From assembly GCA_016215705.1 (NCBI GenBank), contig JACRIR010000209.1, positions 16,530 through 80,529 on the forward strand: a stretch of DNA of 64,000 bases. Direction: 5' to 3'. How positions within the stretch are numbered: position 1 is the stretch's first letter; each line of letters begins with the position of its first letter. Under the pieces are notes generated by a model. It saw only the letters and a program-made list of their open reading frames with translations. It did not search any database and had not been told where the DNA came from. This document shows positions 2,775 to 60,414 of this stretch, piece after piece. A program made the position numbers and the translations under genes. Source of the DNA: Candidatus Poribacteria bacterium. GTDB taxonomy: Bacteria > Abyssobacteria > SURF-5.

Positions 2775-3362
2775 ATGCCTCTCATAATACCAAGGATTGT
2801 GGAACAAGATGCCCGCGGTGAGAAGGGATGGGACATCATTTCTCGCCTGCTGAAAGATCGCATCATATTTATCGGCGAAGCGATTGACGAGTGGGTTTCA
2901 CAGTTAATCATCGCTCAGCTTCTGTATCTCGAAGCGGAAGACCCCGAGAAGGATATATATCTGTACATCAACAGCCCGGGCGGTTACGTCACCGCCGGCC
3001 TTGCGATATATGACACCATGCAGTACATCCGCGCCAATATCTCGACTATTTGCCTTGGACAGGCCGCCAGCATGGGCGCGCTCCTCTTGTGCGCAGGCAC
3101 GAAAGGGAAACGTTTTGCCCTTCCATATGCTCGGATTCTAATCCACCAGCCGCTCGGCGGAGCCCGCGGCCAGGCTACCGATATTGAGATTCAGGCCAAG
3201 GAAATCCTGAAAGTGCGCGAGATAATAAACGAGATACTCGTAAAACACACGAGCCAGAAGGCGGAGAAAGTCCGCCAGGACACCGAGCGCGACTACTATA
3301 TGTCGGCCCAGGAAGCGAAGGATTACGGCATCGTGGACGAAGTGCTCATCAAGAACAAATAG
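2775..3362 (+). CDS. clpP: ATP-dependent Clp protease proteolytic subunit
   Basis: 195 aa; catalytic-Ser motif [11 protein letters not shown], also [18 protein letters not shown]. Confidence 0.95.
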
Positions 3363-3374
3363 GCGGGAAAACAC

Positions 3375-4625
3375 ATGGTATTTAACAGCGGAGAAGGAAG
3401 CGACGTGCCCACGTGCTCGTTCTGCGGAAAGAGGCAGGATGAGGTAAGGAAGCTGATCGCGGGGCCGATGGTGTATATCTGCGACGAATGCGTCGAGCTT
3501 TGCGGCGATATGCTCGAGGGCGAAACCCGCCCTGCAGCCGCTCCCGAGCGGCCAAAGGTTCCAAAACCGAAAGATATAAAGAAGATTCTCGACGAGTATG
3601 TGATTGGCCAGGAGCGCGCAAAGAAAATTCTCTCCGTTGCGGTTCATAACCATTACAAACGCATCGAGTTCGAGTTGGACGACGACGAAGTCGAGCTCCA
3701 AAAGAGCAACGTCCTGCTCGTCGGTCCGACGGGCTCCGGCAAGACCCTCCTCGCACAAACGCTGGCCCGCATCATCGATGTCCCGTTCGCCATCGCGGAC
3801 GCAACGACTCTCACCGAGGCCGGCTACGTCGGTGAAGATGTCGAGAACGTAATTCTGAAGCTTCTCCAGAACGCCGACTATGACCCTGAACAGGCGGAAG
3901 TCGGGATCGTCTATATCGATGAGATCGACAAGATAGCGCGCAAGAGCGAAAACGTTTCCATCACGCGTGACGTCTCCGGAGAAGGCGTTCAGCAGGCCCT
4001 CCTGAAAATATTGGAAGGCACGGTCGCCAACGTTCCCCCACAAGGCGGCCGCAAGCATCCTCAGCAGGAATACATCCAGGTGGATACAACAAACATCCTG
4101 TTCATTTGTGGCGGCGCCTTCGTTGGAATCGAGAAGATAATTGAATCGCGTCTGGGCAAGAACGTCATCGGCTTTGGCTCCGAGGCCAAACCGCGTGAGA
4201 AGAGGAAGGTTGGCGAGATTATCAAGCACATTCAACCGGAGGACCTGCTCAAGTATGGGATGATACCCGAGTTTGTCGGGCGTCTTCCCATCATCGCAAC
4301 TTTCGATGAGCTTTCCGAGGCCGACCTGATCCGTATCCTGCAAGAGCCGAAGAACGCGCTCGTGAAACAATACAAGAAGTTCTTCGACATCGAGAACGTC
4401 AAGCTGACTTTCACCGAAGAAGCCCTTGCTGAAATCTCGCACCAGGCTATAGCCCGAAAGAGCGGGGCCCGTGGCCTGCGCGCCATCATGGAGGAGGTCA
4501 TGCTCGACATCATGTATGAGACTCCCTCCAAGAGCGACGTGCGCGAATGCGTGATCACTGACGCTGTCGTGCGAAAGCAGGAAGAACCAAAGCTTGTGCA
4601 CGTGACCCGAAAGCGTTCTGCCTGA
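3375..4625 (+). CDS. clpX: ATP-dependent Clp protease ATP-binding subunit ClpX
   Basis: 416 aa; N-terminal Zn finger CSFCGK...CDEC; Walker A GPTGSGKT; follows clpP. Confidence 0.95.
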
Positions 4626-4627
4626 CC

Positions 4628-4674
4628 GAGCATATTCGGGGACACGATGCCGCATCGTGTCCCCGAATATGCTC
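4628..4674. repeat. REP-like 47-bp palindrome 3 bp after the clpX stop; probable bidirectional terminator
   Basis: gagcatattcggggacacgatg-ccg-catcgtgtccccgaatatgctc. Confidence 0.85.
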
Positions 4675-4699
4675 GCTCTTCCACAAGTACAAAGCAAGC

Positions 4700-9698: not shown

Positions 9699-10691
9699 TC
9701 ACTTCTCCTGCAGCGTCTCTTCTATTTTCATTCCGAAATGCCGGCCGCCTGCCTCGAGATGTACGAGCGTCTCCGTGCCCCTCTGCAGTGACGCTACAGA
9801 GACGGATTTGCCGCCGGGTTGGACGAGTCGAATGGTTTCGGCGTTTTGCAGGATTGTCGACACGCGCTTGTCGCCAACCTCCGCGACCACGAGCACGAGA
9901 GGGCGTCTCTCGATCTTGCAGCGGCCGACGCTGGCAATCTGGGTGCTGCCCTTGTGGTCGACCACCATAACCTCGTCTCCGGTTGCCAGCTCTGAGAGAT
10001 ACCGCGTCTTGCCGTCAGGATTGAGTATATAGGCGTGGACCGGCCCGGCGTTCACGCGGAACGGCCGAGCGGCCACGTAGGGATTCTCCTCGGATTCCGA
10101 TTGCACGAGAAAGAAGGCGTCGCTCGCGTTTCCGATAAGCATCCCCTGGCCAGGATTCATCTGGCTGCACGTGTCGATGCACACCCTGTCACCCATGCCA
10201 AGCAGCTTCGTCTCGACGACCGTCGCAGTTTCTATTCTAAGTGTAGGCATGATGCCGTGGATAATGTCGACAGTCTTGCCCACTTCGTTTGCGTCCTCGG
10301 TGAAAAGGACGACGCCGTCAACTCCCTTTTCCAGTATATTTACCGCAGTTCGGGCCGTCTTCGAGTCCTTGACTTCGACAAACAGGCCTCCACGCTGCGC
10401 GATAAGGTTTTCAAGCGGTATGATCGTCCAGTCCTTCATCCGCAAAATCAGAAGCTTGTCTTTAGGCGAACGGGCGGCCCGGACCTCGTCGTCCTTCCCG
10501 TTGACCTCGATGGACAAGACGTCTTTTCCGGGCTTTATATCGCCGTCCTCGGCTACCGTGGAAATCAGCCCGAGCTCTTTCACCCTGGCGGTGCATCCCC
10601 TCGGGACCACGACCGCGTCAGCCCCGCATTCGAGCGCGCGTATGACGATATCCTTGTTCCATGGGTCGGCGTTCACCCAGATTCTCTTCAT
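9699..10691 (-). CDS. 3-dehydroquinate synthase II (archaeal-type, AroB')
   Basis: 330 aa; resemblance to archaeal DHQ synthase II (PF01959-like) judged from memory of the family, no database search run. N-terminus MKRIWVNADPWNKD and C-terminal motifs of that family. Confidence 0.7.
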   Translation of the reverse strand: MKRIWVNADPWNKDIVIRALECGADAVVVPRGCTARVKELGLISTVAEDGDIKPGKDVLSIEVNGKDDEVRAARSPKDKLLILRMKDWTIIPLENLIAQRGGLFVEVKDSKTARTAVNILEKGVDGVVLFTEDANEVGKTVDIIHGIMPTLRIETATVVETKLLGMGDRVCIDTCSQMNPGQGMLIGNASDAFFLVQSESEENPYVAARPFRVNAGPVHAYILNPDGKTRYLSELATGDEVMVVDHKGSTQIASVGRCKIERRPLVLVVAEVGDKRVSTILQNAETIRLVQPGGKSVSVASLQRGTETLVHLEAGGRHFGMKIEETLQEK

Positions 10692-10770: not shown

Positions 10771-11565
10771 TTACTTCTCCAGGACCAGCTTTGCCTGCTT
10801 GGCGGTTGCTCCGTCGTGCACGATCTTGCCGATCGCCTCGACAATCTTCTCCGGATTCCTGTGCTGGAAAGCGTTCCGGCCTATTGAAACACCGGCCGCG
10901 CCCGCTCTAAGCGCATTCTCGACCATGATGAAAAGCTGCGCATCAGTCTCGACCTTCTCGCCACCCGCTATGACGACTGGAACGGGGCAGCCCTTAACAA
11001 CCTCCTGGAACGACTCGACGCTGCCCGTATAATTGCACTTGACGATGTCCGCCCCAAGCTCTGCGCCTACCCGCGCCGCATGCTTCACATATTTCACATC
11101 GTATTCGCTTTCGATCTTCTTACCCCTCGTATACAGCATGGCAAGGAGCGGCATCCCCCACTGGAAACATGTCGTGGACACTTGCCCGAAGTATTCCAGC
11201 ATCTGTGTATCCTTCTCCGCCCCCAGGTTGATGTGGATGCTCACGGCGTCGGCGCCCAGCCTGACTGCTTCCTCCACCGTGCATACGGGAACCTTAGTGT
11301 TCGGGTCGGGGCTCATTGAAGTGCTGGCTGAGAGGTGAATGATGAGACCGACGTCTTTGCCACTGCCCCTGTGGCCGACTGCAACGATTCCTTTGTGAAT
11401 TATGATCGCGTTGGCGCCGCCTTCGACCACCTTATCTATGGTTGTCGGCATATCGACCAGGCCCGCAATTGGTCCCATCGTCGTCCCGTGGTCCATGGGC
11501 ACAATCACTGTCCGGTGCGAATTCCTGTCCAAAATCCTCTCGAGTCTTATCTTCTTGCCAATCAT
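10771..11565 (-). CDS. 2-amino-3,7-dideoxy-D-threo-hept-6-ulosonate (ADH) synthase, AroA' (class I aldolase, DhnA/LacD family)
   Basis: Best start at internal Met ([27 protein letters not shown]); the 412-aa ORF 10771-12009 is likely an artefactual N-extension; adjacent to DHQS-II. Confidence 0.65.
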
Positions 11566-11709
11566 AGCGATTCCTTTCACAAAGATTTTATGATTATATA
11601 CGCTCTCAATAGTTCTCAAAAGCTCAATGAACGAACGATATTCTACTCCATACCTGTCCGAAAAAGCAAAGAAACTCCTCAAATTCGGCCAATTTGCTAT
11701 AATGTTTTC

Positions 11710-12672
11710 ATGCCCTATTCTCCTTACGGCTATTACCTTTGGGATTTCTGGCTCATCCACGAACCACCCGACTATCATCTCTTCCATCTGCAAGCGCCCC
11801 GCAACCTGCCGGATCCCGAGTTGCGTCACAACGCGGCCACAATCGGTCACGCGACCTCTTCCGATTTGCTCCACTGGACTGACAAAGGCGAAGTCATTGT
11901 TCCCGGCAAACCCGGCGAATGGGACGACCTGTCCGTATGGACCGGCAGCGTCATCAAGAGCGAGGGTCTCTATCATATGCTCTATACAGGTCGCTGTCAC
12001 GCGGATCAAGGGGCAATTCAGCGAATCGGCCTGGCCCGCTCAGGGGACCTTTTCAATTGGGAGAAACATCAAGGCAACCCCATCATGGAGGCGGACACGA
12101 AGCATTACGAGAAGTTTGGCTCGTGCGGCTACTACTGGGAATCGTGGCGCGATCCATACCTGCTCCATGACCCGGTCGGCCACTGCCATTACGCATTCAT
12201 TACCGCGCGCACAAATCAGGGCGAGCTTGATGAGAGAGGCTGCATCGCTGCAGCCAAATCGACAGACTTGTTTCATTGGGAAATCCTCCCACCGCTTTTC
12301 AGTCCCGGAAAGTTCACTGAGATGGAGGTCCCGCAAATTCTCGAATACGGAGGGAGAAATTATCTGCTCTTTTCAACTAACCCGTTCTGGTATGCGGCCA
12401 GCTATCTGAAGCGGACAGACCTCGTTCCGTGGGAGGGAGATCATTATGCTGTAGCTGATTCTTTTCTCGCTGAATATCGCATGGTCGGCGACGGCGTCCT
12501 CTCGCGCTCAAACGAACACGCATACGCCTCGAAGATCGTCATCGCTCCTTCAGGCGCGCTTGTCCTTTTGTCATGGCTTTCGAGATTGTCCGGCAGCGAC
12601 GAGTTCGCAGGAGCGCTTTCGCGTCCGAAACCCATCCGCTTCAGTGCCGACGGAACGCCGCACATCGATTAA
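11710..12672 (+). CDS. GH32/GH68-like (clan GH-J) five-bladed beta-propeller glycoside-hydrolase-family protein
   Basis: Start moved to Met at 11710; N-terminus MPYSPYGYYLWDFWLIHEP resembles the WDSWP/WMNDPNG nucleophile region. Confidence 0.5.
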   Translation: MPYSPYGYYLWDFWLIHEPPDYHLFHLQAPRNLPDPELRHNAATIGHATSSDLLHWTDKGEVIVPGKPGEWDDLSVWTGSVIKSEGLYHMLYTGRCHADQGAIQRIGLARSGDLFNWEKHQGNPIMEADTKHYEKFGSCGYYWESWRDPYLLHDPVGHCHYAFITARTNQGELDERGCIAAAKSTDLFHWEILPPLFSPGKFTEMEVPQILEYGGRNYLLFSTNPFWYAASYLKRTDLVPWEGDHYAVADSFLAEYRMVGDGVLSRSNEHAYASKIVIAPSGALVLLSWLSRLSGSDEFAGALSRPKPIRFSADGTPHID

Positions 12673-12776: not shown

Positions 12777-15395
12777 TCAAACAGGCAGTATGATCTCCAC
12801 CGTGGTTCCTTCGTTGATCTTGCTTCTTATGTTCATGCTTCCATTATGCGCTTCCACGATCTTCTTGCAGATAGAAAGGCCCAGTCCTGTGCCCTTTGTC
12901 TTGGTCGTGAAGAAGGGCTGTTGGGCGTGCTCCAGATTCTCTTCACTTATTCCGCAGCCGCTGTCGGTGATAGAAACACTCAAGGTTCGCGTACCGGCGC
13001 ATTCCTTGAAACCTGAACGTATCCAGATGTCGCCCCCTTGGCTCATCGCTTCTGTCGCATTAGAAAGGAGGTTTGCCAGAACCTGGACAATCTTTCCGGC
13101 GTCGACAACTATCTCCGCTCCTTCCTGATCCAGTTCGAGATGAACGGCAAAGCCTTGAATCTTACTGGTCACCGTAGTCAAAGCCTGTTTCACAATGTCA
13201 CGGAGCGGCCAACGCAAACGTTCAAGCGCAACCGGCCTTGAATGTTCCAACAAATCCTCGATGATACGGTTCAGCGAGGTAATACCATAATCAATTTCGT
13301 TCAAAATCTCCTGCCTGCTTTTGTTCTCATTCAGTTCTTTCCGGATAGTGTCAACTCCCATGCGAATATTCTGCAGGGGATTCCTGATTTCGTGAGCCAC
13401 GACTGACACCATTCGGCCAATCGATGCAAGGCTTTCGGCTTGCTGGAGCTCCGCCACTTTTTTGCGGACTGTCGCATCGAGACTCTCCGAAAGGAGTCGG
13501 TAGCGTTCTTCAGACCCGCTCAATGCTCTCAGATACAGGCTGTTTCGCATGGCAATAGCGGCATGGTCGGCAAAAGCCGCTGCCAGCCGGGCGTCGTCAA
13601 CGGTGAACCCCCCGGGCTTGTTCGCAAGCCCTATGATACCGACGGTGTTTCCGTCCAGAAGAAGCGGGGCGAAAAGAACGTTTTCCAGCTTTGCGTGGCC
13701 GGGTGGCAGAAATGTTGTCCATGTGGACTCTGGGAAATTGTTTTCATACACGGTTTTCCCCGAGCTATATGCTTGGCCGCGCAATCCTCGGATCGGCATC
13801 GGGGCGGAAGGGTCAACATTGCATGGCATTCCTCCTGCCTCCAGGAACACAACCTCGTTTTGCGTTCCATCCTCGCTCAGGAGGCCAATATATCCGCCGG
13901 TTGCTCCAACCAGGCTCCTGCAGGACTCGAATATCGCCCTTGCGGCTTTCTCAAAATCCTGGTGTTCGAGGATAGAGTGAGAACTTCGGAGTAACGCCGA
14001 AGCCTCTTCGCTGTGTTTGCGCGATTCCTCAAGGGCTTTTCGAATTGTCTCTTCTGCCAAGTTGCGGTCGGTCGTATCGCGGACGACAGCGAGACCCCCC
14101 ACGATTTCACCCAACACATTGAAGAGCGGAGAATAATGCGCTGCAAAGAATCCTTGCCGACCTGTCTCCGGCACGAGGTACGGCCTGTCAGATGTAAGGT
14201 TCGTCTCGCCTGCAAGCGTTTTGGCGAAGTATTTGTCTTCCTCTGTCTCCTTCAAGAACGGGAAGACATCGAAAGCGCATCTGCCGAGGGCCTTTTCCTT
14301 GCTGACTCCGCTGATACGTTCCATTCCGGGATTCCATACGGTGTATCGGAATTCACGGTCAAAGGCGAGGATGCCGTCAACGCTGCTGTTGATCAGATGT
14401 TCGGAGAATTCCTTTTCGGCTCGCAGTTGCTCTTGAGCCTTCTTGCGTTCGGTAATGTCATCAATGGCGAGGAGAATCGTGCCGGCGCCTACGCTTTTTC
14501 GATAAATCTGGCGGCCATTAAGTACCATCACTCTGCGACCGATGCCCGTGAATGTGTTTTCTACCTCGAAGTCTTCGAAATGAGTTCTGTTTGACAAGAT
14601 ATCTTTCAACAATTCCTGCAGTTTGGGAATGTTCCACTGACCGCTTCCAAGATCGGAGACAAGCCTATTAATTGTTTCTTCTTCTGAAACCCTGAATGTC
14701 TTATAGAAAGCCCGATTAGCCGAAACGACTCGCAGGTCAGCATTAAGAACAAGGAGAGGTTCTCGCACAGTTTCTACAATGCTCTCGGCGTAGGCTCGTG
14801 CCTGCTTCGCTTCATCTTCCGCCTTCTTGCGCTTGCTGATATCTCGAATCAGCCATCGCACGCCCGTCAATACGCCCTGTTGGTCTCCAATAGCGGTTGC
14901 GGTTATTGCAGCATAGAAGACAGCCCCTCTTCTCGGCTGCATGCGCACTTCCCAATTCTCCACTCGATCAACCTGCGCGTGCCGGGAAAGACGAGCGAGA
15001 AAAGATTTTCGCTCCCCTTTGGCCAGAAAGAGAACCAACGGTTTGCCGATAAGAAATTTCTGCGTGACGTTCAGCAAGGCCGAGGCGCCACGATTGGCCT
15101 CTAGGATGATGTGGGCGGCATTGGTTACTAAGTAGCCGTCCGGAGCAAACTCGAACAACTCCTGATAGCGATGCCGTTCTGCCTCGGCGGTCTGGCGGGC
15201 AGCGGCAAGTTCCTCATTTTGCTGGCGAAGTTCCTCGTCCGCGACCTCTAATTCTTCCAGAGTGTTCATCAATTCTTCGATGACTTCCGGCAAGACATCG
15301 TCCCTTCGAATCTCCGCGCCAGTGCTGCGACTACTCAGTTCCGTGACCCGTCGTCGCAACTCTCCTATCTTGCGATCAAATTCGGAATATTCCAT
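12777..15395 (-). CDS. Multi-PAS/GAF sensor histidine kinase (no receiver domain) with N-terminal EEL-rich coiled coil
   Basis: 872 aa; N-terminus ELMNTLEELEVADEELRQQNEELAAAR; PAS x3, GAF, HisKA (VAHEIRNPL), HATPase_c. Confidence 0.85.
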   Translation of the reverse strand: MEYSEFDRKIGELRRRVTELSSRSTGAEIRRDDVLPEVIEELMNTLEELEVADEELRQQNEELAAARQTAEAERHRYQELFEFAPDGYLVTNAAHIILEANRGASALLNVTQKFLIGKPLVLFLAKGERKSFLARLSRHAQVDRVENWEVRMQPRRGAVFYAAITATAIGDQQGVLTGVRWLIRDISKRKKAEDEAKQARAYAESIVETVREPLLVLNADLRVVSANRAFYKTFRVSEEETINRLVSDLGSGQWNIPKLQELLKDILSNRTHFEDFEVENTFTGIGRRVMVLNGRQIYRKSVGAGTILLAIDDITERKKAQEQLRAEKEFSEHLINSSVDGILAFDREFRYTVWNPGMERISGVSKEKALGRCAFDVFPFLKETEEDKYFAKTLAGETNLTSDRPYLVPETGRQGFFAAHYSPLFNVLGEIVGGLAVVRDTTDRNLAEETIRKALEESRKHSEEASALLRSSHSILEHQDFEKAARAIFESCRSLVGATGGYIGLLSEDGTQNEVVFLEAGGMPCNVDPSAPMPIRGLRGQAYSSGKTVYENNFPESTWTTFLPPGHAKLENVLFAPLLLDGNTVGIIGLANKPGGFTVDDARLAAAFADHAAIAMRNSLYLRALSGSEERYRLLSESLDATVRKKVAELQQAESLASIGRMVSVVAHEIRNPLQNIRMGVDTIRKELNENKSRQEILNEIDYGITSLNRIIEDLLEHSRPVALERLRWPLRDIVKQALTTVTSKIQGFAVHLELDQEGAEIVVDAGKIVQVLANLLSNATEAMSQGGDIWIRSGFKECAGTRTLSVSITDSGCGISEENLEHAQQPFFTTKTKGTGLGLSICKKIVEAHNGSMNIRSKINEGTTVEIILPV

Positions 15396-15452
15396 GTCTA
15401 CAACCTAACCGGTATTGGATGCTCCATTCATTTGCCGACAAGAGAAAGAGAA

Positions 15453-15474
15453 CAACTCAACTCAACTCAACTCA
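15453..15474. repeat. Pentamer SSR (CAACT)x4 upstream of the histidine-kinase gene
   Basis: caactcaactcaactcaactc. Confidence 0.8.
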
Positions 15475-15609
15475 GGCTGGTGTAACATTAATATAACAAT
15501 ATTGAGTCTTGCATCATCCTTGTCCGGAAGCAAGTAAGACGTTACTCGCCATGGTGAGCCCTTTTCCCTCCAATCCTTCAGTCCCTTTTGGCCTCCGCCT
15601 CTTTTAACC

Positions 15610-15636
15610 GGAACCATGAACTCGGAACCATGAACC
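15610..15636. repeat. Two tandem 'GGAACCATGAAC' units (same GTTCATGG motif as the heptamer array at 60437-60503)
   Basis: ggaaccatgaactcggaaccatgaacc. Confidence 0.7.
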
Positions 15637-15640
15637 CTCC

Positions 15641-17509
15641 TTAATGTGTCTCCCCCTCCTCCATCAATATGATGACGCCTTCGATTTCCTTCGTGGCGCC
15701 GATCAAAGGCGAGCTGGTCACATGGCATTGTATCGCCTTGCCACGACGGCTTATGGCGTCCACGGTCGCTTCGTGAATGTCGGTTTCTCCGGCAAGCACT
15801 GCGCGAATGAGTCCTTTCAGTTGCTCGACCGGCAGCCCGATATCCAGATTCAGGAGGAACTGGTCCTTCACCTCATCGGCCCGCAGTCCCCACAAGTCTT
15901 CCGCCTTCTTGTTCCAATTGGTGACTTTGAGGTTTCGGTCCACGACAACTACTCCCATGCGTACCCCGCCAATAATGGATTCGAGGAAAGCGTTCATCTG
16001 ATTCAGCATATCGGTGCGCTCGCGCAGCTCGTCATTGATCGTGTTCAGTTCCTCGTTGGTGGCTTGCAGTTCCTCGTTCATGGTTTCCATTTCCTCGCTG
16101 GAGGACTGGAGTTCCTCATTTGTGGTCTCGAGTTCTTCGACGGTAGACTGCAATTCCTCGTTTGTAGTCTCGAGTTCCTCGCTCGAGGATTGGAGTTCCT
16201 CATAGGCGCTCTCAAGTTCGTTCGTGGACTGTTCGCACTCGCGCTCCAACTGATTATAACGAGTTACGTCGGTGAATGTCATGCTCACGCCAAGGGAGAT
16301 TCCGCTGCTGTCAAACAGAGGCACTAGATAGATATCCAAATACTGAGGTTCCCTTTCGGGGAAAGTTCGTTCCACGTTTGTGATGTAGACCGATCTCATC
16401 TCCGAATAAGCCTGTTTGATACGCGAACGGAGTTCCAACGGCCGATACGAAACTTCCAGTTCGTGAAAGGGTCGGCCCACATCCCTGATGTCCAGTCCGA
16501 ACAGAGACAATGCTTCGGCATTCGCCATCGTCAGGTTCTCATTTTGGTCCACGACCATCTGCGCCGATGGAGCTCTCTCGAAGACAGCTTCCTGCAGTTG
16601 GGGGTACGGAGCCTGAAGCTCACGCGCCGCGGCGCAGCCGGCTTCGACCACGACTGGCGCGCGTCCTTGCAGACGGATAGCGCCGGGTGTCTTCTTGAAA
16701 ATGCGGTATTTCAGGTTTGTCGGCACAAAGAGATTCGTGTGCGTGAGTATCATTTCCGCCTTACCCAGAAAGAGGAACCCGTCGTCATTGAGGGCGAAGT
16801 GCAGGCGGCTTAGTATCTTATTCTGAGTCTCGGAGTTGAAATACATAAGGGTATTGCGGCAAACGAGCAGGTCGATGCGCGAGATAGGAGAGTCCTTCAT
16901 AACGTCATGAGCCCCGAAAATAGCAGAACGGCGAAATTCAGGCGAGAAGGCGTGACGGTCTTGTGCTCGGGTGAAGTATTTGTCTTTGAATTCGGCGGGG
17001 AACCCCTCCATTTGCGCGTCGCTGTAAAGCGCATGGCGCGCTTCATTCAAGGCGTTTTCGTCTATATCCGTGGCATATATCTTAACTCGTTTCTTGAACT
17101 GCTCCGCCCCCAAAGCTTCCGCAAACACGATGGCAAGGCTGTAAGCTTCCTCGCCCGAGGCGCAGCCCACACTCCACACTCGGATGGGCTCCCCTTCCGG
17201 TTTTCCCTCGATTATCTGCGGGACAACTTCATGCGCAATGTATTCCCATGCGGGCGCATCCCGGAAAAAACTGGTCACGTTTATCAGAATCGTATTGAAC
17301 AGATGGGCGAACTCGTCGGGGTGTACCTCGAGGTAATCCATGTAATCGCCGTAGTCTTGTTTGTTCACCGTCTGCATTCTCTTGTTGACACGGCGCATCA
17401 GGCTCGTTCGCTTGTAACCGGTGAAGTCGAACCCGCGCTCCCTTTTTATGAATTCAAGGAGAGCTTCAAATTTGGGGTCGTGCGCAGGGTCCTTCTTCTG
17501 GTCGGTCAT
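15641..17509 (-). CDS. CheR-type MCP methyltransferase fused to a PAS domain and a long EELQxxNEEL heptad-repeat coiled coil
   Basis: 622 aa; CheR SAM-binding region VWSVGCASGEEAYSLAIV; tandem repeats ELESAYEELQSSSEELETTNEELQSTVEELETTNEELQSSSEEMETMNEELQATNEEL; C-terminal PAS. Confidence 0.85.
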   Translation of the reverse strand: MTDQKKDPAHDPKFEALLEFIKRERGFDFTGYKRTSLMRRVNKRMQTVNKQDYGDYMDYLEVHPDEFAHLFNTILINVTSFFRDAPAWEYIAHEVVPQIIEGKPEGEPIRVWSVGCASGEEAYSLAIVFAEALGAEQFKKRVKIYATDIDENALNEARHALYSDAQMEGFPAEFKDKYFTRAQDRHAFSPEFRRSAIFGAHDVMKDSPISRIDLLVCRNTLMYFNSETQNKILSRLHFALNDDGFLFLGKAEMILTHTNLFVPTNLKYRIFKKTPGAIRLQGRAPVVVEAGCAAARELQAPYPQLQEAVFERAPSAQMVVDQNENLTMANAEALSLFGLDIRDVGRPFHELEVSYRPLELRSRIKQAYSEMRSVYITNVERTFPEREPQYLDIYLVPLFDSSGISLGVSMTFTDVTRYNQLERECEQSTNELESAYEELQSSSEELETTNEELQSTVEELETTNEELQSSSEEMETMNEELQATNEELNTINDELRERTDMLNQMNAFLESIIGGVRMGVVVVDRNLKVTNWNKKAEDLWGLRADEVKDQFLLNLDIGLPVEQLKGLIRAVLAGETDIHEATVDAISRRGKAIQCHVTSSPLIGATKEIEGVIILMEEGETH

Positions 17510-18138
17510 GTGGCGTCACCTCTCATCACGAGAGTCACAATGGCTGACGAAATTTCGGGCAGTGGCAATACGAAGTCCACGTCTCCCGTCTGAATGGCTG
17601 CGGCCGGCATGCCGAAAAATTCCGAGGTTTCCTCATCCTGCGCAATCACGGTTCCCCCCATCTTCTTTATAGCACGCACGCCCATCGAGCCGTCACTGCC
17701 TGTGCCTGTTAAGACTATGGCGATCGCACGCTCCTTGTGACTGGCGGCTACCGATTCGAATAGCAGGTCGGCCGAAGGCCGAACGAAATGGACCAACTCC
17801 GACTCGGTGAGTGAGAGGGAACCATCGGTGTTCACGAGGAGATGCCGGTTTGGGGGCGCAATATAGACGGTGCCGGCCGTCAATACATCGTCTTTCTCCG
17901 CCTGTTTGACTCGCAAAGGCGTGTGCCGGGATAATATGTCGGCCATCAGGCTGCGGTGTCTCGGATCAAGGTGTTGGACCACAACAATAGCGGCCGCAAA
18001 ATCCATGGGCAACCCGCGTAGAACATCCTCGAGCGCCCTCAGCCCCCCCGCTGATGCAGCTATGGCCACGATGTCAAAACCTGCGCCCGAGAAAAAAGAT
18101 ACCTTCTCTGCTTTGCCTGTTTTCTCACGCTTCATCAT
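17506..18138 (-). CDS. CheB-type methylesterase (catalytic domain only, no REC domain)
   Basis: 210 aa; IVAIAASAGGLRALEDVL and VVVQHLDP methylesterase motifs; 4-bp ATGA overlap with the cheR-like gene. Confidence 0.85.
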   Translation of the reverse strand: MMKREKTGKAEKVSFFSGAGFDIVAIAASAGGLRALEDVLRGLPMDFAAAIVVVQHLDPRHRSLMADILSRHTPLRVKQAEKDDVLTAGTVYIAPPNRHLLVNTDGSLSLTESELVHFVRPSADLLFESVAASHKERAIAIVLTGTGSDGSMGVRAIKKMGGTVIAQDEETSEFFGMPAAAIQTGDVDFVLPLPEISSAIVTLVMRGDAT

Positions 18139-44085: not shown

Positions 44086-44320
44086 TCGAGCAAATCAATC
44101 ACGAAACATTTGCAGTATACACGCGCAAGAAAAGCCATGTCAATGCCGGATTAAGGGATAAGTGCGCCAAATAAGAGGTGCTGAGTCTGCCCCGAGTTTG
44201 ACAGGCCAACATGGTTCGACTATAATTTCAAAAACAGGCGTTTGTGTTTGCCGTAGTTGCAACCAGCCGCTATCACGCAACAAAAACCTCGGATTTCAAG
44301 AACTTGCACAAACTATTCTG

Positions 44321-45709
44321 ATGCGTAAAATCCCCCGTTTCAAGATATTCCTTCTTCTCGCGCTGTCTGCAACCCTCCTGCAATGTGCTGACAGGCCACA
44401 AGTTTCAGTCAAGAACGAGATGAATGTTCTCCTTATTACAATCGATACTCTTCGCGCCGACCATCTCGGCTGCTACGGCTACACTCAGCACGTTTCGCCC
44501 TCTATTGACGCCTTGGCCCATAGGGGAGTTCTATTCAGCAACTGCATAAGCCAATGCCCCATGACCCCTACGTCGCACGCTTCCATACTCACTGGTCAGG
44601 ATCCCTACCGTCACGGCGTGCGTGAGTTCCTCAGCAAAAGACTCAAGCGAGATACTCCCACTCTGGCGACCCTTCTGAAGAATGCCGGCTATCAAACCGC
44701 TGCCTTCGTCAGCGCATACTCTCTTGAGAAACAAAAATATGGGCTGGACAACGGGTTCGATGTTTATGACCAGAGTTTCTGCGAGGAGCAAGACGCCGAA
44801 CACTTCGACCAGGAAAAACAAAGGGTTAATTCTCAGCGCCAACAGAACCCGGTGCAGAGAAGGGCCGACCTGACCGCGTCTCTTGCCGTGGACTGGTTGC
44901 GCCGGATTGACAAGCGCCCGTTCTTCCTGTGGGTCCACTACTTTGATCCTCATGAGACTGTCCTCGTGCCTCCAATCATTCCCGGTCTCTTCGAGTATTC
45001 GGTCAAGGGCCCACTGACTCCTGTTCATCTGCAAATGTATGATGTCGAGATAAGGTTCGTGGACTTGATACTTAATACTTTGACCAGCGAGCTCTTCAAA
45101 ATGGGATTGGGACAAAACACCTTGATTGTTCTGACTTCCGACCACGGGCAGGGGCTTGACAACCACAACTACGAGTACCATACTCGCGCTCTCTACCAGG
45201 AACAAATCCATATTCCCTTGATCCTTGCCGGCAAACCGATACCCGTCGGCGTGAAAGTGGATGCTCTCGCCAGGTCGACGGACATCCTTCCCACCGTGCT
45301 TGATATCCTCGGCTATCCGGATGATAAGATTCCCCTCAACTTTGACGGCAGGAGCCTGCGAACTTTCTGGGAAAACACAGGTCGCGAAAAACCCGCTGAA
45401 GTCACGGCATACAGCGAAACTTTGTATTCAAAACTCAGAAGCGGCGGCTCGCCTATGTATTCGATGATTGACGGCGACATGAAGCTGATCTATCACGCCG
45501 AAGCGCAATATAAGAACGAAATGTATGACCTCGCCCGCGATCCGCTCGAGATGAACAACATATTCACTCAGCAGCCGAAGCATGCGAAAAAACTGATCGG
45601 AGAAATCAATTCTCTGCTGAAAGGAACCACGATTTCCACTCAACGGGCAAAAGCCGGGCAGGACAAGGATTGGGAGAACAAGCTGAAATCTCTCGGATAT
45701 ATGAACTAG
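44321..45709 (+). CDS. Sulfatase-like alkaline-phosphatase-superfamily hydrolase/transferase, secreted; lacks the FGly C-x-P-x-R motif
   Basis: Start at MRKIPRFKIFLLLALSATLLQC signal peptide; metal-binding N-terminus LLITIDTLRADHLGCYG; CPMTPT in place of CxPxR. Confidence 0.75.
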   Translation: MRKIPRFKIFLLLALSATLLQCADRPQVSVKNEMNVLLITIDTLRADHLGCYGYTQHVSPSIDALAHRGVLFSNCISQCPMTPTSHASILTGQDPYRHGVREFLSKRLKRDTPTLATLLKNAGYQTAAFVSAYSLEKQKYGLDNGFDVYDQSFCEEQDAEHFDQEKQRVNSQRQQNPVQRRADLTASLAVDWLRRIDKRPFFLWVHYFDPHETVLVPPIIPGLFEYSVKGPLTPVHLQMYDVEIRFVDLILNTLTSELFKMGLGQNTLIVLTSDHGQGLDNHNYEYHTRALYQEQIHIPLILAGKPIPVGVKVDALARSTDILPTVLDILGYPDDKIPLNFDGRSLRTFWENTGREKPAEVTAYSETLYSKLRSGGSPMYSMIDGDMKLIYHAEAQYKNEMYDLARDPLEMNNIFTQQPKHAKKLIGEINSLLKGTTISTQRAKAGQDKDWENKLKSLGYMN

Positions 45710-47469
45710 TGTAAGGAGTATAAGTTCTCTAGCGCCTCTTTCAGCGCTTCCGGCCGACGCGGCGATACTTCGCCGCCCTCATAAACGAGAAACGGGGAAC
45801 CAACATATCTCTCCCAATCCCTCTGATATCGACTGTCCTTCCCGACTATCCCAAGTTGCTTCACCCTCCGCCAGCGCTCGGCGCAAACCTGATCCTGCAA
45901 CGAGCGCTCCGGAAAGTAAATATGCCCGCCCAGTGCGCCAATCTTGAAGTATGCTGATTTCCCATAGGACAGCGCCCCATAGGGTATCATCTCGACGGTT
46001 ACGATTCGGACGGCGTCGAGCGACTCGTCGCCATAGAACAGGCGCAGAGCGTACTTGAGATTGTCAAACCTGAAAACGAGCGCACCCTCAACGGAATCGG
46101 GAACATTAAGGAAGAAAAACGTCGTTCCGGATCCCGGGGCCGGGTAGATTTGCGTCGTCTGCTCAACGACGTCACCCGCAATGTCGGAAGCATGCTTCCA
46201 TATGGTCTGTCTTTGTTTGAGATAATAGCAGCTTGTGCCGGCAAAAGCGATCGCTAGGACGCATCCGAGAACAATTGAATATCTCCTCGATCTCGGGGCC
46301 GCCGACTCAGAAAGCCCGAACAAAGCGACCGAAATCAATATCGCCGCCGCACTCGATCCTAGAACCATGTGTCTCTCCGATGGCACCAGTCCCAGGCAGA
46401 GGACCGGCGCGGCGCTCACCATAATCCACCATAAAAGGAACGTTGCCCTGAATCTCTTCAGGATCAACGGAACGACTACAACTGCCAGGATGGTGACTCC
46501 TCCGACTACCGGAAAAACCACTCCATTTCCTGCAAGCCTGTCGAACCAGTTTAGCGCTAAAGCCCAGTCGATTGGGGACAGGGTCATAATGAGTGAGTAC
46601 CACAATCCGACTATCAGAATTCTCCAGTCGAAGGCGGTCAGCGCGGGCGGCAAGTGTACCTGCCGCATTACCACGTGTCGGACGGCCACAAAAAGGACGC
46701 CAAGCGCAATAAATGGCAGACAGCTTGTCGCGCTTCTCATTATTGCGTTTAGCAAGCGGGAATACACGTCCGCTGTCGTCGGACCAGGACTCTCGCTCTG
46801 GCAGGGATGACCTCGATGTTCTCGAATGACTTGTGTATTCCCTCCGGCTATTGCCCCATCTCTGACAGGGTTGCTCGCTCCCAGGAGCATGTCATAGATA
46901 AAGACAATTATCGGGAGAGAAATAGCTGATTCCTTTGTCAGCAACGCGCATGCGAATAAGACCAGTGAGCACGCATATGAGGGCGTAGAACGATCCTGCC
47001 GCCATCGAATGAAACATATGAGCGATGCCAACGTGAGAATATTTTCAACAGCCCCATTAATGCTCGATATCCAGAAAATAGCTTCGGCGTGCACGCTCGA
47101 GGTCAGGAATATGACTGCCGAGACGAGGCCCAACAGCCATCTGCCCGTGATACGCAATCCCAAAACGTAAACCTCAAAACACAGAACAGCAAAACAAATG
47201 AGGCTCATCATGTGGTAGCCACCCGACCACAAATGAAACACTCTTCCTAATAACTCGAAGAAGACTTTGATTCCTGGCCGATAGTAGAGGCCCCACGACG
47301 GCCTCAGAAATTCCGAAAGCCCTTCCCGCCAGCCGACACTTTCTTGATGGAGCGCATGATAGATCACGTTGTAATCATCGGAATTGAACCCATGCTTTAT
47401 CGTCCCACCTAAAAGAATGAAGACTAAAGTGAAAAGCAGGAAAAGGAAGACGGCTTTTTTCAGTCCCAC
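45706..47469 (-). CDS. TMTC/PMT-like multi-TM membrane protein (candidate GT-C glycosyltransferase)
   Basis: 587 aa; ...SSVHAEAIFWISSINGAVENIL parallels the HP(I/V)HxE(S/A)V region of the 39677 protein; >10 TM segments. Confidence 0.55.
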   Translation of the reverse strand: MGLKKAVFLFLLFTLVFILLGGTIKHGFNSDDYNVIYHALHQESVGWREGLSEFLRPSWGLYYRPGIKVFFELLGRVFHLWSGGYHMMSLICFAVLCFEVYVLGLRITGRWLLGLVSAVIFLTSSVHAEAIFWISSINGAVENILTLASLICFIRWRQDRSTPSYACSLVLFACALLTKESAISLPIIVFIYDMLLGASNPVRDGAIAGGNTQVIREHRGHPCQSESPGPTTADVYSRLLNAIMRSATSCLPFIALGVLFVAVRHVVMRQVHLPPALTAFDWRILIVGLWYSLIMTLSPIDWALALNWFDRLAGNGVVFPVVGGVTILAVVVVPLILKRFRATFLLWWIMVSAAPVLCLGLVPSERHMVLGSSAAAILISVALFGLSESAAPRSRRYSIVLGCVLAIAFAGTSCYYLKQRQTIWKHASDIAGDVVEQTTQIYPAPGSGTTFFFLNVPDSVEGALVFRFDNLKYALRLFYGDESLDAVRIVTVEMIPYGALSYGKSAYFKIGALGGHIYFPERSLQDQVCAERWRRVKQLGIVGKDSRYQRDWERYVGSPFLVYEGGEVSPRRPEALKEALENLYSLH

Positions 47470-47591: not shown

Positions 47592-48326
47592 CTAATGCTC
47601 TTTTGTCGCAAGCAAAAGCAACGAAAGCCCGAATGGCAAGTCACAGCGTCCCAGCAGCCAGCGCTCCATTCGCATCGCTCCCAACAGAAGCTGGTTCAGC
47701 AATCGCAGGTCTTCATGATATTTTATTCGATAGTTTGCCGAAGCCTTCCTGAGTCTTCCGAAGGTGAGCCTCGCAAGCGCAACCGGCCCAAAAAGAAGAG
47801 TATTGAAATAGCTGACGCGTTTTACCCTGAAGCCCGCAGACTCTACTTTCCCGAGCAGTTCCTTCTTCGAGTATCGTCGCTTGTGGTGGAGTGCGGCGTC
47901 ATGAGCGCTCCACAGACTCTCATACGCGGGAACGCTCACGAGCAGATTTCCTTTAGGCGCTGCGACTCTGAACACTTCGCGGAGCACGGCATTATCGTCC
48001 TCACAATGCTCGAGCAAGTCGGCCGCAATCAGCAATCCGAATGCGCCCGACTTGAAGGGAAGCGCCCCTGCGTCGGCCCGGCAGAGTCTCGAAATGCCCG
48101 TGCCGCGGCAGTAAGCGAGCGCGCCCATGTTGCAGTCCATCCCGAAGATGCGTCCTGCCGCCGTGAATCGTTTCATCATGAGACCGGAGCCGCATCCGAT
48201 GTCCAGGATCGGCCTGTCTTTCAACGAGTCGGTTTGTGCGCTGGAAAAGAGAATATCGCGTGTGCCGACAAACCACCAGTGATTCTCGCCCAGCCGGAAC
48301 AACTGAGCGTACTCCCCAGGATTCAT
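47592..48326 (-). CDS. Class I SAM-dependent methyltransferase
   Basis: 244 aa; SAM-binding motif ILDIGCGSGLMM. Confidence 0.8.
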   Translation of the reverse strand: MNPGEYAQLFRLGENHWWFVGTRDILFSSAQTDSLKDRPILDIGCGSGLMMKRFTAAGRIFGMDCNMGALAYCRGTGISRLCRADAGALPFKSGAFGLLIAADLLEHCEDDNAVLREVFRVAAPKGNLLVSVPAYESLWSAHDAALHHKRRYSKKELLGKVESAGFRVKRVSYFNTLLFGPVALARLTFGRLRKASANYRIKYHEDLRLLNQLLLGAMRMERWLLGRCDLPFGLSLLLLATKEH

Positions 48327-49240
48327 TCGACCTGCTCCATTCTTATGCCGTACACTAGCATAATGTCGAAAGGATTGATATATACCACGCGGTCACCCAG
48401 CCCAAGCGAGCGGGTCAGCCACCCCGCGACTCTCTCCACCGTTGAGCTATACAGCCCTGCTCTCTTTATGAAGAAATCCACGTCTATATATTTCCCCACG
48501 TGTTCCAGGCGAACGGTCTCAAATCGGGACTTGGCGAGCAGGCGCTTCAATGTTCCGGGAGTGAAATAGTACAGGTGTTCCCCCTGTTTGATCCCCATCC
48601 AACTTGAACGCCACACTCGAGCAGGGACACTTGCGATGTTCGGAGTAGTAAGCGCGAGGAGCCCACCGGGCCTCAGAAGGCTGTGTGCCTTTTTGAACTC
48701 CTCTGCCGGATCAGGGCAATGCTCGATATAGTCCCACATGGTGACAACGTCAAAGCTCGCTGGCTCCATGTCGGCATTGGCCAACAAGCCGCAGAACACG
48801 TCCACACCAAGGTTCTTGCGCGCAAAGTCGCATGCGAACTCCGATATCTCGACCCCCTGCGCGCGCCAGCCGAGCTCCCTTGCTACCTCGAGTGAGAAAC
48901 CGGTTGCGCAACCGATGTCCAACAACCTTCCCTTGCGATGGGTCCATCCCTCGATTTCCTTGAGACGTCTGTGGAACGTTCTCGAAATCTTTTCGCGGTC
49001 GGCGATGTAATCATCATAGCCCACGGCCCCCGAATCAGCGCTCCGGAAGTATGACTCAGAGTAAAGCTGCCCCATCTCCTGCGAGTCGGGGATATTGTCT
49101 GCTCTCACGAGTCCGCATCCATCGCACTTGAGTAGCCCGAGATTGGGATACACGTATCGGGCTGAACCGGACCCGCAGAGGTTGCACGGTTGGAAGTCAA
49201 TCACTTGACGGTGGGAGTTCATAGCGCTTCTTCCAGTCAT
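48323..49240 (-). CDS. SAM-dependent methyltransferase with N-terminal Cys4 zinc ribbon
   Basis: 305 aa; CNLCGS...CDGCG ribbon, then LLDIGCATGFSL; paralog of the 28900 protein. Confidence 0.8.
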   Translation of the reverse strand: MTGRSAMNSHRQVIDFQPCNLCGSGSARYVYPNLGLLKCDGCGLVRADNIPDSQEMGQLYSESYFRSADSGAVGYDDYIADREKISRTFHRRLKEIEGWTHRKGRLLDIGCATGFSLEVARELGWRAQGVEISEFACDFARKNLGVDVFCGLLANADMEPASFDVVTMWDYIEHCPDPAEEFKKAHSLLRPGGLLALTTPNIASVPARVWRSSWMGIKQGEHLYYFTPGTLKRLLAKSRFETVRLEHVGKYIDVDFFIKRAGLYSSTVERVAGWLTRSLGLGDRVVYINPFDIMLVYGIRMEQVE

Positions 49241-59046: not shown

Positions 59047-60414
59047 TCACGTGGTTCCCTTACCCTTCGGCACGTATCCCAGCGGTGCGCCCGGTGGTAT
59101 GAGTGGCTCCTTTTGGACGCTCTCATTGAATTCGATGAGAAGCAGACCCATGTGGAACGCCACCCACGAATGGAGATGCGGATAATTGAGCCGTTTTCTC
59201 TCCTTCGGATCTACGATAAGGTTTACAAGATTCGGGTTGGGGATCGGCAAAGCAGGATCTGTATAGTATCGCTGCTCCATTAGCTTCACCTTGAAATTAC
59301 GCCACTTCGCGCCGTAGAGGGTGGGGCCGTTCCAAAAAAGAAACCCCTCACGGTTGGAATTCTCCTGCCCGCCTTCAAAGAACGCCCGCTGATCCACCCC
59401 GTCAATCACCCGGTCCGTCGGCGGCTCACAGCCCGCCCATCTGAGCAGAGTCGCGAACATATCGGTGATGTGAACGACTTCGTTGCTCTGCCGGCCAGCA
59501 GGCACCCTGCCCGGATAGCGAATCAAACACGGCGTTCGCAGCGAGCCTTCCATCCCCGTGAAATACGAGCCCTCGAAGAACCCGGCAGTGCCTCGCCAGG
59601 GCTCTTTCTCCTCGGGACCATTGTCGCCGGAGAACACCACAATCGTGTTGTCGGCGACTCCGAGTTCATCCAGGTAGTCGAGCAGCACGCCAAAATCCGA
59701 GTCGAGCTCGAGCATGGAATCGGCGAAGTTGTCATTGCCCGTCTTCCCTTTGAATTCGTCGCGCGGGACCGTCGGGAAATGCAGCATCGAGTGGCAGAAG
59801 TAGAGAAAGAAGGGTTTGTCCGCGTTGACGCTCTGCTTAAGGAAGGCCTTGGCGCGCTTCATGTACTCGACGTCGATATTGCGGCGAGCCTCGATGGTCA
59901 GTTGCTCGACCGCCCGTATGTCTTCTCCTTTGCGGCCTTCGAGAACGTATGAAATAGGGTCGCGCTTCGGGTCATACCACGGGTCATCCGGCCAGAGAGA
60001 CTCGTCGTAGCTGCGCGGTATGCCGTACCATTCGTCGAAACCATGCTCAATCGGCCACCGCCCTTTCTCTGCGCCGATGTGCCATTTGCCATAAAGCGCC
60101 GTGGCGTAACCCGCCTCGGACAAAATGTCGCCCATTGTTCGCTCCCACGCAACAATGCCTCCGCTCGTGCCCGCGAGTGCTACCGTATGTGTGCCCGAGC
60201 GAATGGAATAGCGGCCTGTCATTAACGCCGAGCGGGTGGGCGTGCACTGCGCCTCTGGCGCAAAGTTGAGAAGCTTGATCCCTTCGGTGGCGAATTGATC
60301 GAGGCGGCGTGTCTCAACTCCTCGCAAAATCCCGCCCCCGTAGCAACCCAGTTCGCCGAATCCGAGGTTGTCGCACAAGAAATAGACAATGTTCGGACGT
60401 TTGGGATGTTCCAT
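59047..60414 (-). CDS. Formylglycine-dependent sulfatase (arylsulfatase family)
   Basis: 455 aa; NIVYFLCDNLG and C-T-P-T-R FGly motif (AQCTPTRSALMTGRY). Confidence 0.9.
   Translation of the reverse strand: MEHPKRPNIVYFLCDNLGFGELGCYGGGILRGVETRRLDQFATEGIKLLNFAPEAQCTPTRSALMTGRYSIRSGTHTVALAGTSGGIVAWERTMGDILSEAGYATALYGKWHIGAEKGRWPIEHGFDEWYGIPRSYDESLWPDDPWYDPKRDPISYVLEGRKGEDIRAVEQLTIEARRNIDVEYMKRAKAFLKQSVNADKPFFLYFCHSMLHFPTVPRDEFKGKTGNDNFADSMLELDSDFGVLLDYLDELGVADNTIVVFSGDNGPEEKEPWRGTAGFFEGSYFTGMEGSLRTPCLIRYPGRVPAGRQSNEVVHITDMFATLLRWAGCEPPTDRVIDGVDQRAFFEGGQENSNREGFLFWNGPTLYGAKWRNFKVKLMEQRYYTDPALPIPNPNLVNLIVDPKERKRLNYPHLHSWVAFHMGLLLIEFNESVQKEPLIPPGAPLGYVPKGKGTT

Follow-up and report, generated by a model that had tools for sequence, protein, structure and literature searches.

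A probable MAC2-type cheB-cheR-kinase locus of a Candidatus Poribacteria bacterium with a highly conserved, candidate methyl-accepting coil on the CheR protein

Analysis of 64,000 nucleotides of DNA from a Candidatus Poribacteria bacterium (GTDB lineage Bacteria; Abyssobacteria; SURF-5; assembly GCA_016215705.1, contig JACRIR010000209.1, positions 16,530 to 80,529 of the forward strand), in the following referred to as the window, revealed a locus of three genes on the minus strand. They specify a stand-alone CheB methylesterase, a CheR methyltransferase extended by a PAS-helix-PAS unit (CheR-MAC), and a sensor histidine kinase (Table 1). With moderate confidence, we favour the reading that the locus is a module of the MAC2 type (MAC for methyl-accepting coiled-coil), in which methylesterase and methyltransferase would work without chemoreceptors, the coil carried by the CheR protein would serve as substrate and the kinase would read its state. 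The observations behind this proposal are the gene order, the domain architecture, the intact catalytic motifs, register, charge and conservation of the coil, the homology of two coil-PAS modules, synteny, and the lack of che genes nearby; methylation of the coil, its effect and the read-out by the kinase are what we infer from them.

The original prediction, which had been made from the sequence alone, described most of this arrangement. It proposed that cheB overlaps cheR, that CheB is devoid of a receiver domain, that CheR is fused to one PAS domain and more than six tandem heptads rich in Glu and Gln, that the kinase consists of a similar coil, three PAS domains, GAF and kinase domains without a receiver, and that no gene for a methyl-accepting chemotaxis protein (MCP), CheA or CheW lies nearby. 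The coordinates of the open reading frames (ORFs), their translations and Pfam searches bear these points out: the ATG of cheR overlaps the TGA of cheB as ATGA, Pfam finds nothing but the catalytic domain in CheB, nine heptads in register are present on the CheR protein, and Pfam yields no receiver domain in the 872-aa kinase. One detail had to be corrected. The fusion of CheR to PAS stands, but Pfam detects two PAS domains, which flank the coil.

The sole Pfam match of the 210-aa CheB is CheB_methylest (PF01339, residues 24-200, E 1e-65), and no receiver domain is found in it by Pfam. NCBIfam models for CheB align to the protein via their C-terminal halves only and score well below cut-off, in keeping with a missing receiver. 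Ser29, His56 and Asp149 (numbering of the CheB from the window), which we take to be the Ser-His-Asp catalytic triad, are conserved to 98-100% across 83 CheB domains of related loci. In the CheR protein, Pfam matches to CheR_N (PF03705, 2.2e-16) and CheR (PF01739, 2.5e-53) were obtained, the latter covering profile positions 1-190 of 195, and the CheR domain matches the solved CheR structures 5ftw (E 6e-34), 5y4r and 1af7. The motifs WSxGCASGEE and ATDxD are invariant in the alignment of CheR orthologues. Since the CheR profile is covered almost in full, its motifs are invariant and the Ser, His and Asp residues of CheB are kept, both enzymes are, judged by their sequences, probably active.

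A predicted disordered tether (residues 277-308), in which conservation is lower than anywhere else in the protein, connects the catalytic domain of CheR to the first PAS domain. The latter is matched by the Pfam families PAS_4 (2.7e-16) and PAS_10 (2.1e-10) and adopts a PAS fold in the AlphaFold2 model. Taking the geometry of the modelled tether as a basis, the enzyme would be able to reach along its own helix or that of a dimer partner. The 622-aa protein is identical to the NCBI entry 'PAS domain S-box protein [Candidatus Poribacteria bacterium]'.

The coil between the two PAS domains is the most conspicuous part of the CheR protein. Residues 436-498 constitute nine heptads in unbroken register, YEELQSS, SEELETT, NEELQST, VEELETT, NEELQSS, SEEMETM, NEELQAT, NEELNTI and NDELRER, seven of them with EEL, one with EEM and one with DEL. 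In this copy, the 70 residues from 429 to 498 include 24 acidic and two basic ones. In the DNA at 16046-16224, Tandem Repeats Finder reports repeat periods of 21, 42 and 84 nt (66-80% matches), which indicates an old and diverged repeat with a super-period of 14 residues and no recent expansion. In an alignment of 120 orthologues, residues 429-498 are more conserved than any other part of the protein, with a mean frequency of the top residue of 0.92 and an entropy of 0.35 bits. For the catalytic domain, these values amount to 0.79 and 0.94 bits, and the two PAS domains reach a mean frequency of 0.65-0.69. Within the register, position a is Asn in 82% and otherwise Tyr or Val, b is Glu in 93%, c is Glu in 99% and d is Leu in 98%; position e is Gln or Glu in strict alternation, f is Ser or Thr, and g is Thr. 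The eight core heptads are free of basic residues, and the median net charge of the coil is -21. The Poribacteria copy has Ser at two a positions, S443 and S471, which are Asn in 92% and 99% of the family, respectively. Positions b, c, e and f are exposed and nevertheless nearly invariant across phyla, which argues for a surface that is read by another protein and not for a spacer.

Between the two PAS folds, AlphaFold2 predicts one uninterrupted helix from residue 416 to 514 (pLDDT 86-95). The corresponding segment measures 99 aa in 118 of the 120 orthologues and 113 aa (99+14) in the other two. Its length thus shifts by whole units of 14 residues, i.e. two heptads, only, matching the alternation of Gln and Glu at position e. 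A sequence search of the PDB revealed no solved structure over the CheR or the kinase coil; only CheR catalytic domains and a generic PAS were matched.

Methylation sites of MCPs are described by the classic pattern Glu-Glu-X-X-Ala-Ser/Thr and by a 10-residue pattern, [ASTG][ASTG]xx[EQ][EQ]xx[ASTG][ASTG]. In their heptad register, the Glu-Glu pair occupies b and c and small or hydroxyl residues occupy f and g, with hydrophobic residues at a and small ones at d. The CheR coil is MCP-like in the register of its Glu-Glu pairs and small or hydroxyl residues, and its core is inverted, with Asn at a and Leu at d. It contains six 6-mers of the relaxed form EExx[AST][AST] within 50 residues, one of which (EELQAT at 479) is an exact site, whereas the background of relaxed sites in other proteins of the window is 0.28 per 1000 aa. 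Six 9-mers are short of the full consensus by the first small residue only. The coil of the kinase has no exact site and a single relaxed one (EELAAA at 61). The consensus sites that the original prediction had suggested to look for are thus present in part in the CheR coil and barely in that of the kinase, and the poor fit of the latter renders the proposal of a methylated kinase much weaker than that of a methylated CheR protein.

The kinase nevertheless carries a clearly related element. Its N-terminal heptads, IEELMNT, LEELEVA, DEELRQQ and NEELAAA, occupy residues 39-66, and in a profile-profile comparison by hhalign residues 37-198 of the kinase align to residues 455-622 of the CheR protein (probability 96.2%, E 2.6e-9); the heptads share one register, and the alignment extends across the PAS fold. 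The match between the coils noticed at first sight thereby gains statistical support, and the N-terminal coil-PAS of the kinase is a paralogue of the C-terminal coil-PAS of the CheR protein. In the AlphaFold2 model of residues 1-198 (pLDDT 88.5), a helix (3-26), a loop and a second helix (34-82) precede the PAS fold. Among 49 homologues, the Glu-Glu pairs of the two central heptads are conserved to 83-95%, on a par with the core Leu. In many related loci, the first ~125 residues of a kinase encoded near cheR can be aligned with confidence to the kinase of the window, the consensus being ...ALEELxxALEELxVAEEELRQQNEELxxxRxxxExERQRYQELFEFAPDGYLVTDxxGxIxEANxAA.... Pairing of helix 3-26, basic in this protein, with the acidic coil, or its folding back onto it, was considered as a general feature and rejected, for the net charge of this helix has a median of 0 and ranges from -4 to +5 in the 49 homologues.

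ORFs were called in 80 related loci and in the window, 81 loci in total, and searched with seeds from the window locus. A hidden Markov model of the coil-PAS module detected 50 ORFs in the 646 kb searched at up to 5 kb from cheR and not one in the 536 kb at 5-10 kb. The module is present at 31 of the 53 loci having at least 3 kb of flanking sequence on both sides, and in 25 of these 31 it lies directly downstream of cheR on the same strand. Among the 74 loci whose flanks are long enough, 64 have a cheB gene on the same strand directly upstream of cheR. The smallest unit that is conserved consists of cheB and cheR-MAC. As this unit stands alone in actinobacterial loci, the substrate should be sought within the pair, which favours the coil of the CheR protein as primary acceptor. 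Neither MCP nor CheW was detected in the 81 loci by phmmer.

A search for che genes in the window gave the same picture. Pfam analysis of about 40 further ORFs, phmmer searches with Tsr, CheW and CheY as seeds against all ORFs of at least 70 aa, and Pfam labels yielded no MCP, CheA, CheW or receiver domain within the 64 kb; in this search, a few short ORFs were covered by the phmmer seeds only and five genes (Tat, YfhO, methyltransferase) by precomputed Pfam labels.

The outputs connected to the coil-PAS module are diverse. In related loci, HisKA/HATPase (commonly in a protein of ~440 aa), HisKA_3/HATPase, hybrid kinase-receivers and a SpoIIE phosphatase were found, and database matches also include GGDEF, REC, HTH and CBS. 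The module therefore behaves as a portable input. A word-indexed search with the kinase N-terminus produced 193 matches, mostly short fragments, and is not usable as a census of the module.

Relatives of the CheR protein are abundant. All 8000 of 8000 scored candidates for the 622-aa protein have E values of 1e-10 or below, and orthologues of ~620 aa with 51-62% identity occur in many phyla. Lengths of 607-636 aa prevail among the top 120, three of which have ~740-745 aa, and their identity to the protein is 55-62%. A scan of one genome per species gave at least 591 confirmed relatives, the best 80 of which come from Cyanobacteria, NC10, Burkholderiales, Chloroflexi, Gemmatimonadota, Planctomycetes, Actinobacteria (Actinoplanes, Pseudonocardia), Acidobacteria, Armatimonadota and others. 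With residues 301-622 as query, 588 clusters (50% identity) were obtained at E <= 1e-30. At JGI, orthologues are designated 'two-component system CheB/CheR fusion protein', which is a KEGG-style name and not an architecture.

The MAC class was named by Wuichet & Zhulin 2010, as cited in a preprint of 2022 (10.1101/2022.05.07.491037). According to that source, methylation of the coil in a chemotaxis-independent module is a standing hypothesis for the class, MAC proteins were without experimental characterisation as of 2022, and there are proteome clusters with MAC components and no other chemotaxis system. MiST3 carries models for MAC1 and MAC2. No paper in the searchable literature contains the exact heptad strings, 'CheBR', 'CheB-CheR fusion' and 'CheR/CheB domain' receive passing mentions only, and the titles and abstracts listed on chemotaxis in Poribacteria pointed to nothing specific. 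The original prediction had regarded the combination as one not seen characterised; it is already named, modelled in MiST3, labelled by JGI and KEGG and present in hundreds of species-level genomes, and what stands is that the searchable literature yielded no experiment on it.

The locus fits the description of MAC2, which combines separate CheB and CheR, a Glu-Glu coil and an associated kinase. CheB and CheR are encoded apart from the kinase by two ORFs with ATGA overlap, nine heptads in register, with Glu-Glu at b and c conserved to about 100% in the 120 orthologues, lie inside a predicted helix of 99 residues, and a coiled coil and kinase domains are joined in the 872-aa protein. Shared with MAC2 are also the absence of MCP, CheA and CheW, here within the window, and the orthology of the CheR protein across phyla. 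Compared to the common coil-PAS-kinase partner of ~440 aa, the kinase described here is larger, with two extra PAS domains and GAF; a second CheB of ~350 aa known from many related loci is absent, and two Asn at a are replaced by Ser. MAC1, or KEGG K13924 'CheB/CheR fusion protein', has the same domains in the same order, CheB-CheR-PAS-coil-PAS-kinase, and likewise combines receptor, kinase and adaptation enzymes without CheW. By its description CheB and CheR are parts of one polypeptide in MAC1, which as a rule includes the kinase, whereas here the domains are split over three ORFs and the kinase has its own copy of coil-PAS.

In canonical adaptation, CheR and CheB act on MCP helices such as those of Tar and Tsr in E. 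coli. The enzymes are homologous, with the CheR fold, its S-adenosylmethionine (SAM) motifs and the CheB triad residues present; Glu-Glu pairs at b and c with small or hydroxyl residues behind them (EExx[A/S/T][S/T]) are common to both, and charge neutralisation is a plausible signal in either case. On the other hand, there is no MCP signalling domain, CheA or CheW in the neighbourhood within the 64-kb window, and CheB has no N-terminal receiver, nor do the ~350-aa variants. While MCPs form an antiparallel hairpin and four-helix bundle, the candidate acceptor here is a single long predicted helix between two PAS domains. Its core is of Asn and Leu and not mostly hydrophobic or small, it offers 8-9 candidate sites, none of them Gln-encoded, and it resides in the same polypeptide as the enzyme. 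The CheR-TPR fusions FrzF and WspC carry a C-terminal non-catalytic module and have non-flagellar outputs (PMC3447774). They resemble the CheR protein in that the catalytic domain is extended C-terminally, but the extension is TPR and not PAS-coil-PAS, and they act on MCP-like receptors in CheA/CheW clusters, whereas no receptor gene is found near the locus.

A mechanism consistent with these features can be outlined. The CheR enzyme, tethered via a flexible linker of ~30 residues to its own PAS-helix-PAS unit, would methylate the 99-residue helix with its 8-9 Glu-Glu pairs in MCP register, either in cis or across a dimer, and the stand-alone CheB would demethylate it. Neutralising up to ~20 charges on a helix with Asn at a and Leu at d may change the stability or the register of the coiled coil and thereby shift the PAS domains on either side to another signalling state. 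This state would be passed to the adjacent PAS/GAF kinase via its N-terminal coil-PAS, probably by pairing with the C-terminal coil-PAS of the CheR protein, and the Glu-Glu heptads of the kinase may be secondary substrates. A more far-reaching version appears unlikely to us: the unmethylated coil, with a charge of about -21 and an Asn core, would be loose and be zipped by CheR methylation, a heteromeric coil-PAS pair would form with the kinase, and a single CheB/CheR-MAC pair would serve, as a common adaptation hub, a family of otherwise ordinary sensors, i.e. the SpoIIE, GGDEF, REC and other proteins that bear the module at scattered sites of the genome. If it held, this would be an equivalent of chemotaxis adaptation without receptors and arrays, and a living analogue of an intermediate between two-component and chemotaxis systems.

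The chemotaxis-independent methylation module of the original prediction fits the intact enzymes, the exceptionally conserved coil, the synteny with the kinase and the absence of MCP and CheW from the 81 loci; the part of it in which the kinase is methylated is weak. Several points weigh against the favoured reading as a whole. The full 10-residue MCP consensus occurs neither in the CheR coil nor in the kinase coil, in the former because Gln or Glu sits at the first small position. Twenty-two of the 53 well-flanked loci, mostly actinobacterial with some from Nostoc, have no adjoining coil-PAS protein. When sampling was reversed and started from three coil-PAS proteins, two (P0141 and P0197) had no CheB or CheR within 8 kb, which suggests that the coupling is not obligatory or operates in trans, and that the module is more widely spread than the enzyme pair. 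Furthermore, the search of this genome for che genes covers the 64-kb window, the AlphaFold2 model is that of a monomer and silent on oligomeric state and on docking of enzyme and substrate, and the assignment to MAC2 rests on secondary descriptions of the class and the features analysed here. Finally, the searchable literature revealed no experimental work on a MAC protein.

In a rival reading, the coil of the kinase, and the same module on other outputs, would be the real substrate. The CheR coil would then remain unmodified and, by pairing with these coil-PAS modules, dock or target the enzyme, like the pentapeptide tether that brings CheR to some MCPs. The strong synteny of coil-PAS and cheR, the homology of the two modules in register, central Glu-Glu pairs as conserved as the core Leu, and the occurrence of the module on many outputs and also away from cheB and cheR, reminiscent of many receptors served by one enzyme pair, are in line with such a role. 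We regard it as improbable, since the kinase coil has no exact and just one relaxed site, the CheR coil is nearly invariant over nine heptads, beyond the apparent need for docking to four, and cheB with cheR-MAC occurs without a nearby coil-PAS in the 22 loci mentioned above. Still less probable is that CheB and CheR serve conventional MCPs encoded elsewhere, with PAS-coil-PAS merely regulating or dimerising CheR and a functionally unrelated kinase. The catalytic domains of both enzymes are clearly of the chemotaxis type, and the che search of this genome spans 64 kb, within which MCP, CheW and CheA are missing. MCP and CheW are missing from all 81 loci, too, the proteome clusters with MAC and no other chemotaxis system (10.1101/2022.05.07.491037) point in the same direction, and CheB is devoid of the receiver through which CheA controls it. 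Moreover, a linker of purely structural function would not exceed all other segments in conservation and display invariant Glu-Glu pairs on its surface, and the homologous coil-PAS of the kinase and its conserved adjacency would be left unexplained.

It is also conceivable that neither coil is methylated and that the polyanionic Asn/Leu zipper acts as sensor or scaffold for cations, pH, temperature or a basic partner, while CheR and CheB act on a third substrate. From a charge of about -21 and Asn at almost all a positions, a coil of marginal stability that responds to ionic conditions is predicted, and the full MCP consensus is unmatched. This explanation, to which we assign a low probability, does not account for the constant fusion of the array to CheR and its pairing with CheB, nor for Glu-Glu pairs that keep the MCP register and have small or hydroxyl residues behind them.

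Table 1. Features of the cheB-cheR-MAC-kinase locus (positions within the window)
Feature	Position	Strand	Basis
cheB-cheR-MAC-kinase locus, 3 ORFs filling the span	12777-18138	-	ORFs
cheB: stand-alone CheB methylesterase catalytic domain, 210 aa	17506..18138	-	ORF; Pfam PF01339
cheR-MAC: CheR_N + CheR, tether, PAS, helix, PAS; 622 aa	15641..17509	-	ORF, Pfam, AlphaFold2
CheR_N (aa 14-64) + CheR SAM-dependent methyltransferase domain (aa 77-265)	16715..17470	-	Pfam
Predicted disordered tether, CheR protein aa 277-308	16586..16681	-	AlphaFold2, pLDDT <50
First PAS of CheR protein, aa ~306-420, PAS_10/PAS_4 type	16250..16594	-	Pfam, AlphaFold2
Inter-PAS single helix of CheR protein, aa 416-514	15968..16264	-	AlphaFold2, pLDDT 86-95
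Acidic heptad array, candidate methyl-accepting region, CheR protein aa 436-498	16016..16204	-	Translation, alignment
C-terminal PAS of CheR protein, aa 508-616	15662..15988	-	Pfam PF00989, 1.4e-18; AlphaFold2
cheR-kinase intergenic spacer, 245 bp	15396..15640	-	Between ORFs
Sensor histidine kinase, 872 aa	12777..15395	-	ORF, Pfam
Kinase N-terminal long helix, aa 34-82, running into PAS N-cap, ERHRYQELFEFAPDGY	15150..15296	-	AlphaFold2
Kinase heptads, 4 xEELxxx, aa 39-66	15198-15281	-	Translation
Kinase PAS1, aa 76-186, in conserved coil-PAS input module	14838..15170	-	Pfam, module alignment
Kinase PAS2 (~208-321), PAS3 (336-444), GAF (479-616), HisKA (660-720), HATPase_c (765-871)	12783..14774	-	Pfam

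Variations of the components were noticed in related loci. A CheB of ~350 aa is encoded at L016:3043-4098, L020:8751-9785, L045:6794-7840, L071:8914-9957 and in about 36 other related loci, beside the short CheB or, in Actinobacteria, itself directly upstream of cheR; the window holds the short CheB only. In the long version, the CheB domain is N-terminal and followed by a conserved, Cys-rich extension of ~160 aa and a helical tail. The extension shows a zinc-ribbon-like motif, CPxCGGxLWE...RFRCRxGHAYS, and no Pfam match and no receiver was found in it. With the CheB domain at the N-terminus and an extension without receiver, the idea that this protein is a REC-CheB closing a phosphorylation feedback loop was rejected. 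The third of the coil-PAS proteins used for reverse sampling belongs to a decayed cassette of another Candidatus Poribacteria genome (L082:3287-7012; GCA_016178185.1, contig JACOTU010000124.1). It consists of cheB remnants, a cheR without residues 1-346, so that the catalytic domain is gone, in which a coil-PAS ORF of 216 aa is intact, and a following coil-PAS kinase-receiver hybrid split over two ORFs. Gene decay or an assembly error could be responsible for this state. PAS_10-type domains, the type fused to CheR, are also found in short proteins without a CheR domain (L085:15535-16221 from a Desulfosporosinus metagenome-assembled genome; P0241), one of which lies 7 kb from a coil-PAS kinase with neither cheB nor cheR in its vicinity. 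Gene fragments may be among these short proteins.

In the spacer between cheR and the kinase gene and in the operon, promoter and terminator signals were no more frequent than in shuffled controls. The spacer contains a perfect direct repeat of 14 nt at 15609-15635, 5 nt past the cheR stop (minus strand GGTTCATGGTTCCG / AGTTCATGGTTCCG), and a run of GTTGA pentamers at ~15455-15475, some 60-80 nt before the start of the kinase gene; both are possible regulatory sites.

The stretch represented by the window is also found on a Logan contig of run SRR12113407. Neighbouring genes specify Tat components, membrane glycosyltransferases of the YfhO and PMT types, polysaccharide synthesis, sulfatases, and a pair of 3-dehydroquinate synthase II (DHQS II; PF01959, E 3e-122) and DeoC-family aldolase directly downstream of the kinase gene (9699-10691 and 10771-12009, both minus strand). 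This pair is reminiscent of the archaeal type of route into the synthesis of aromatic amino acids (ADH synthase and DHQS II), here in a bacterial genome. A GH32-like ORF on the plus strand (11335-12672; Glyco_hydro_32N, E 3e-20) overlaps in its longest reading the DeoC ORF on the opposite strand, probably because both ORFs were called too long at the 5' end. Three sulfatase genes (44162-45709, 59047-60414 and 61941-63578), one with a Tat signal, and a big block for glycosyltransferases and polysaccharide synthesis are present, which agrees with the assignment to Poribacteria, and three ORFs of 519, 587 and 324 aa at 3138-4697 (-), 45706-47469 (-) and 47595-48569 (+), respectively, are without a Pfam match at E <= 1e-4.

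The locus is a Poribacteria member of its class with a larger kinase, and it introduces no new principle. Added here are a coil more conserved than the enzyme it is fused to, its length quanta of 14 residues, a portable, paralogous module with strong synteny and, in related loci, a Cys-rich second CheB; these features may sharpen experiments. As the class has apparently never been tested experimentally, the locus keeps some value as a question. Textbooks know reversible glutamate methylation from chemoreceptors alone. The MAC systems, which are present in very many bacteria, among them non-flagellated cyanobacteria, actinomycetes and uncultured phyla, suggest a use of these enzymes in tuning ordinary sensor kinases and, via the portable coil-PAS, also phosphatases and cyclases.

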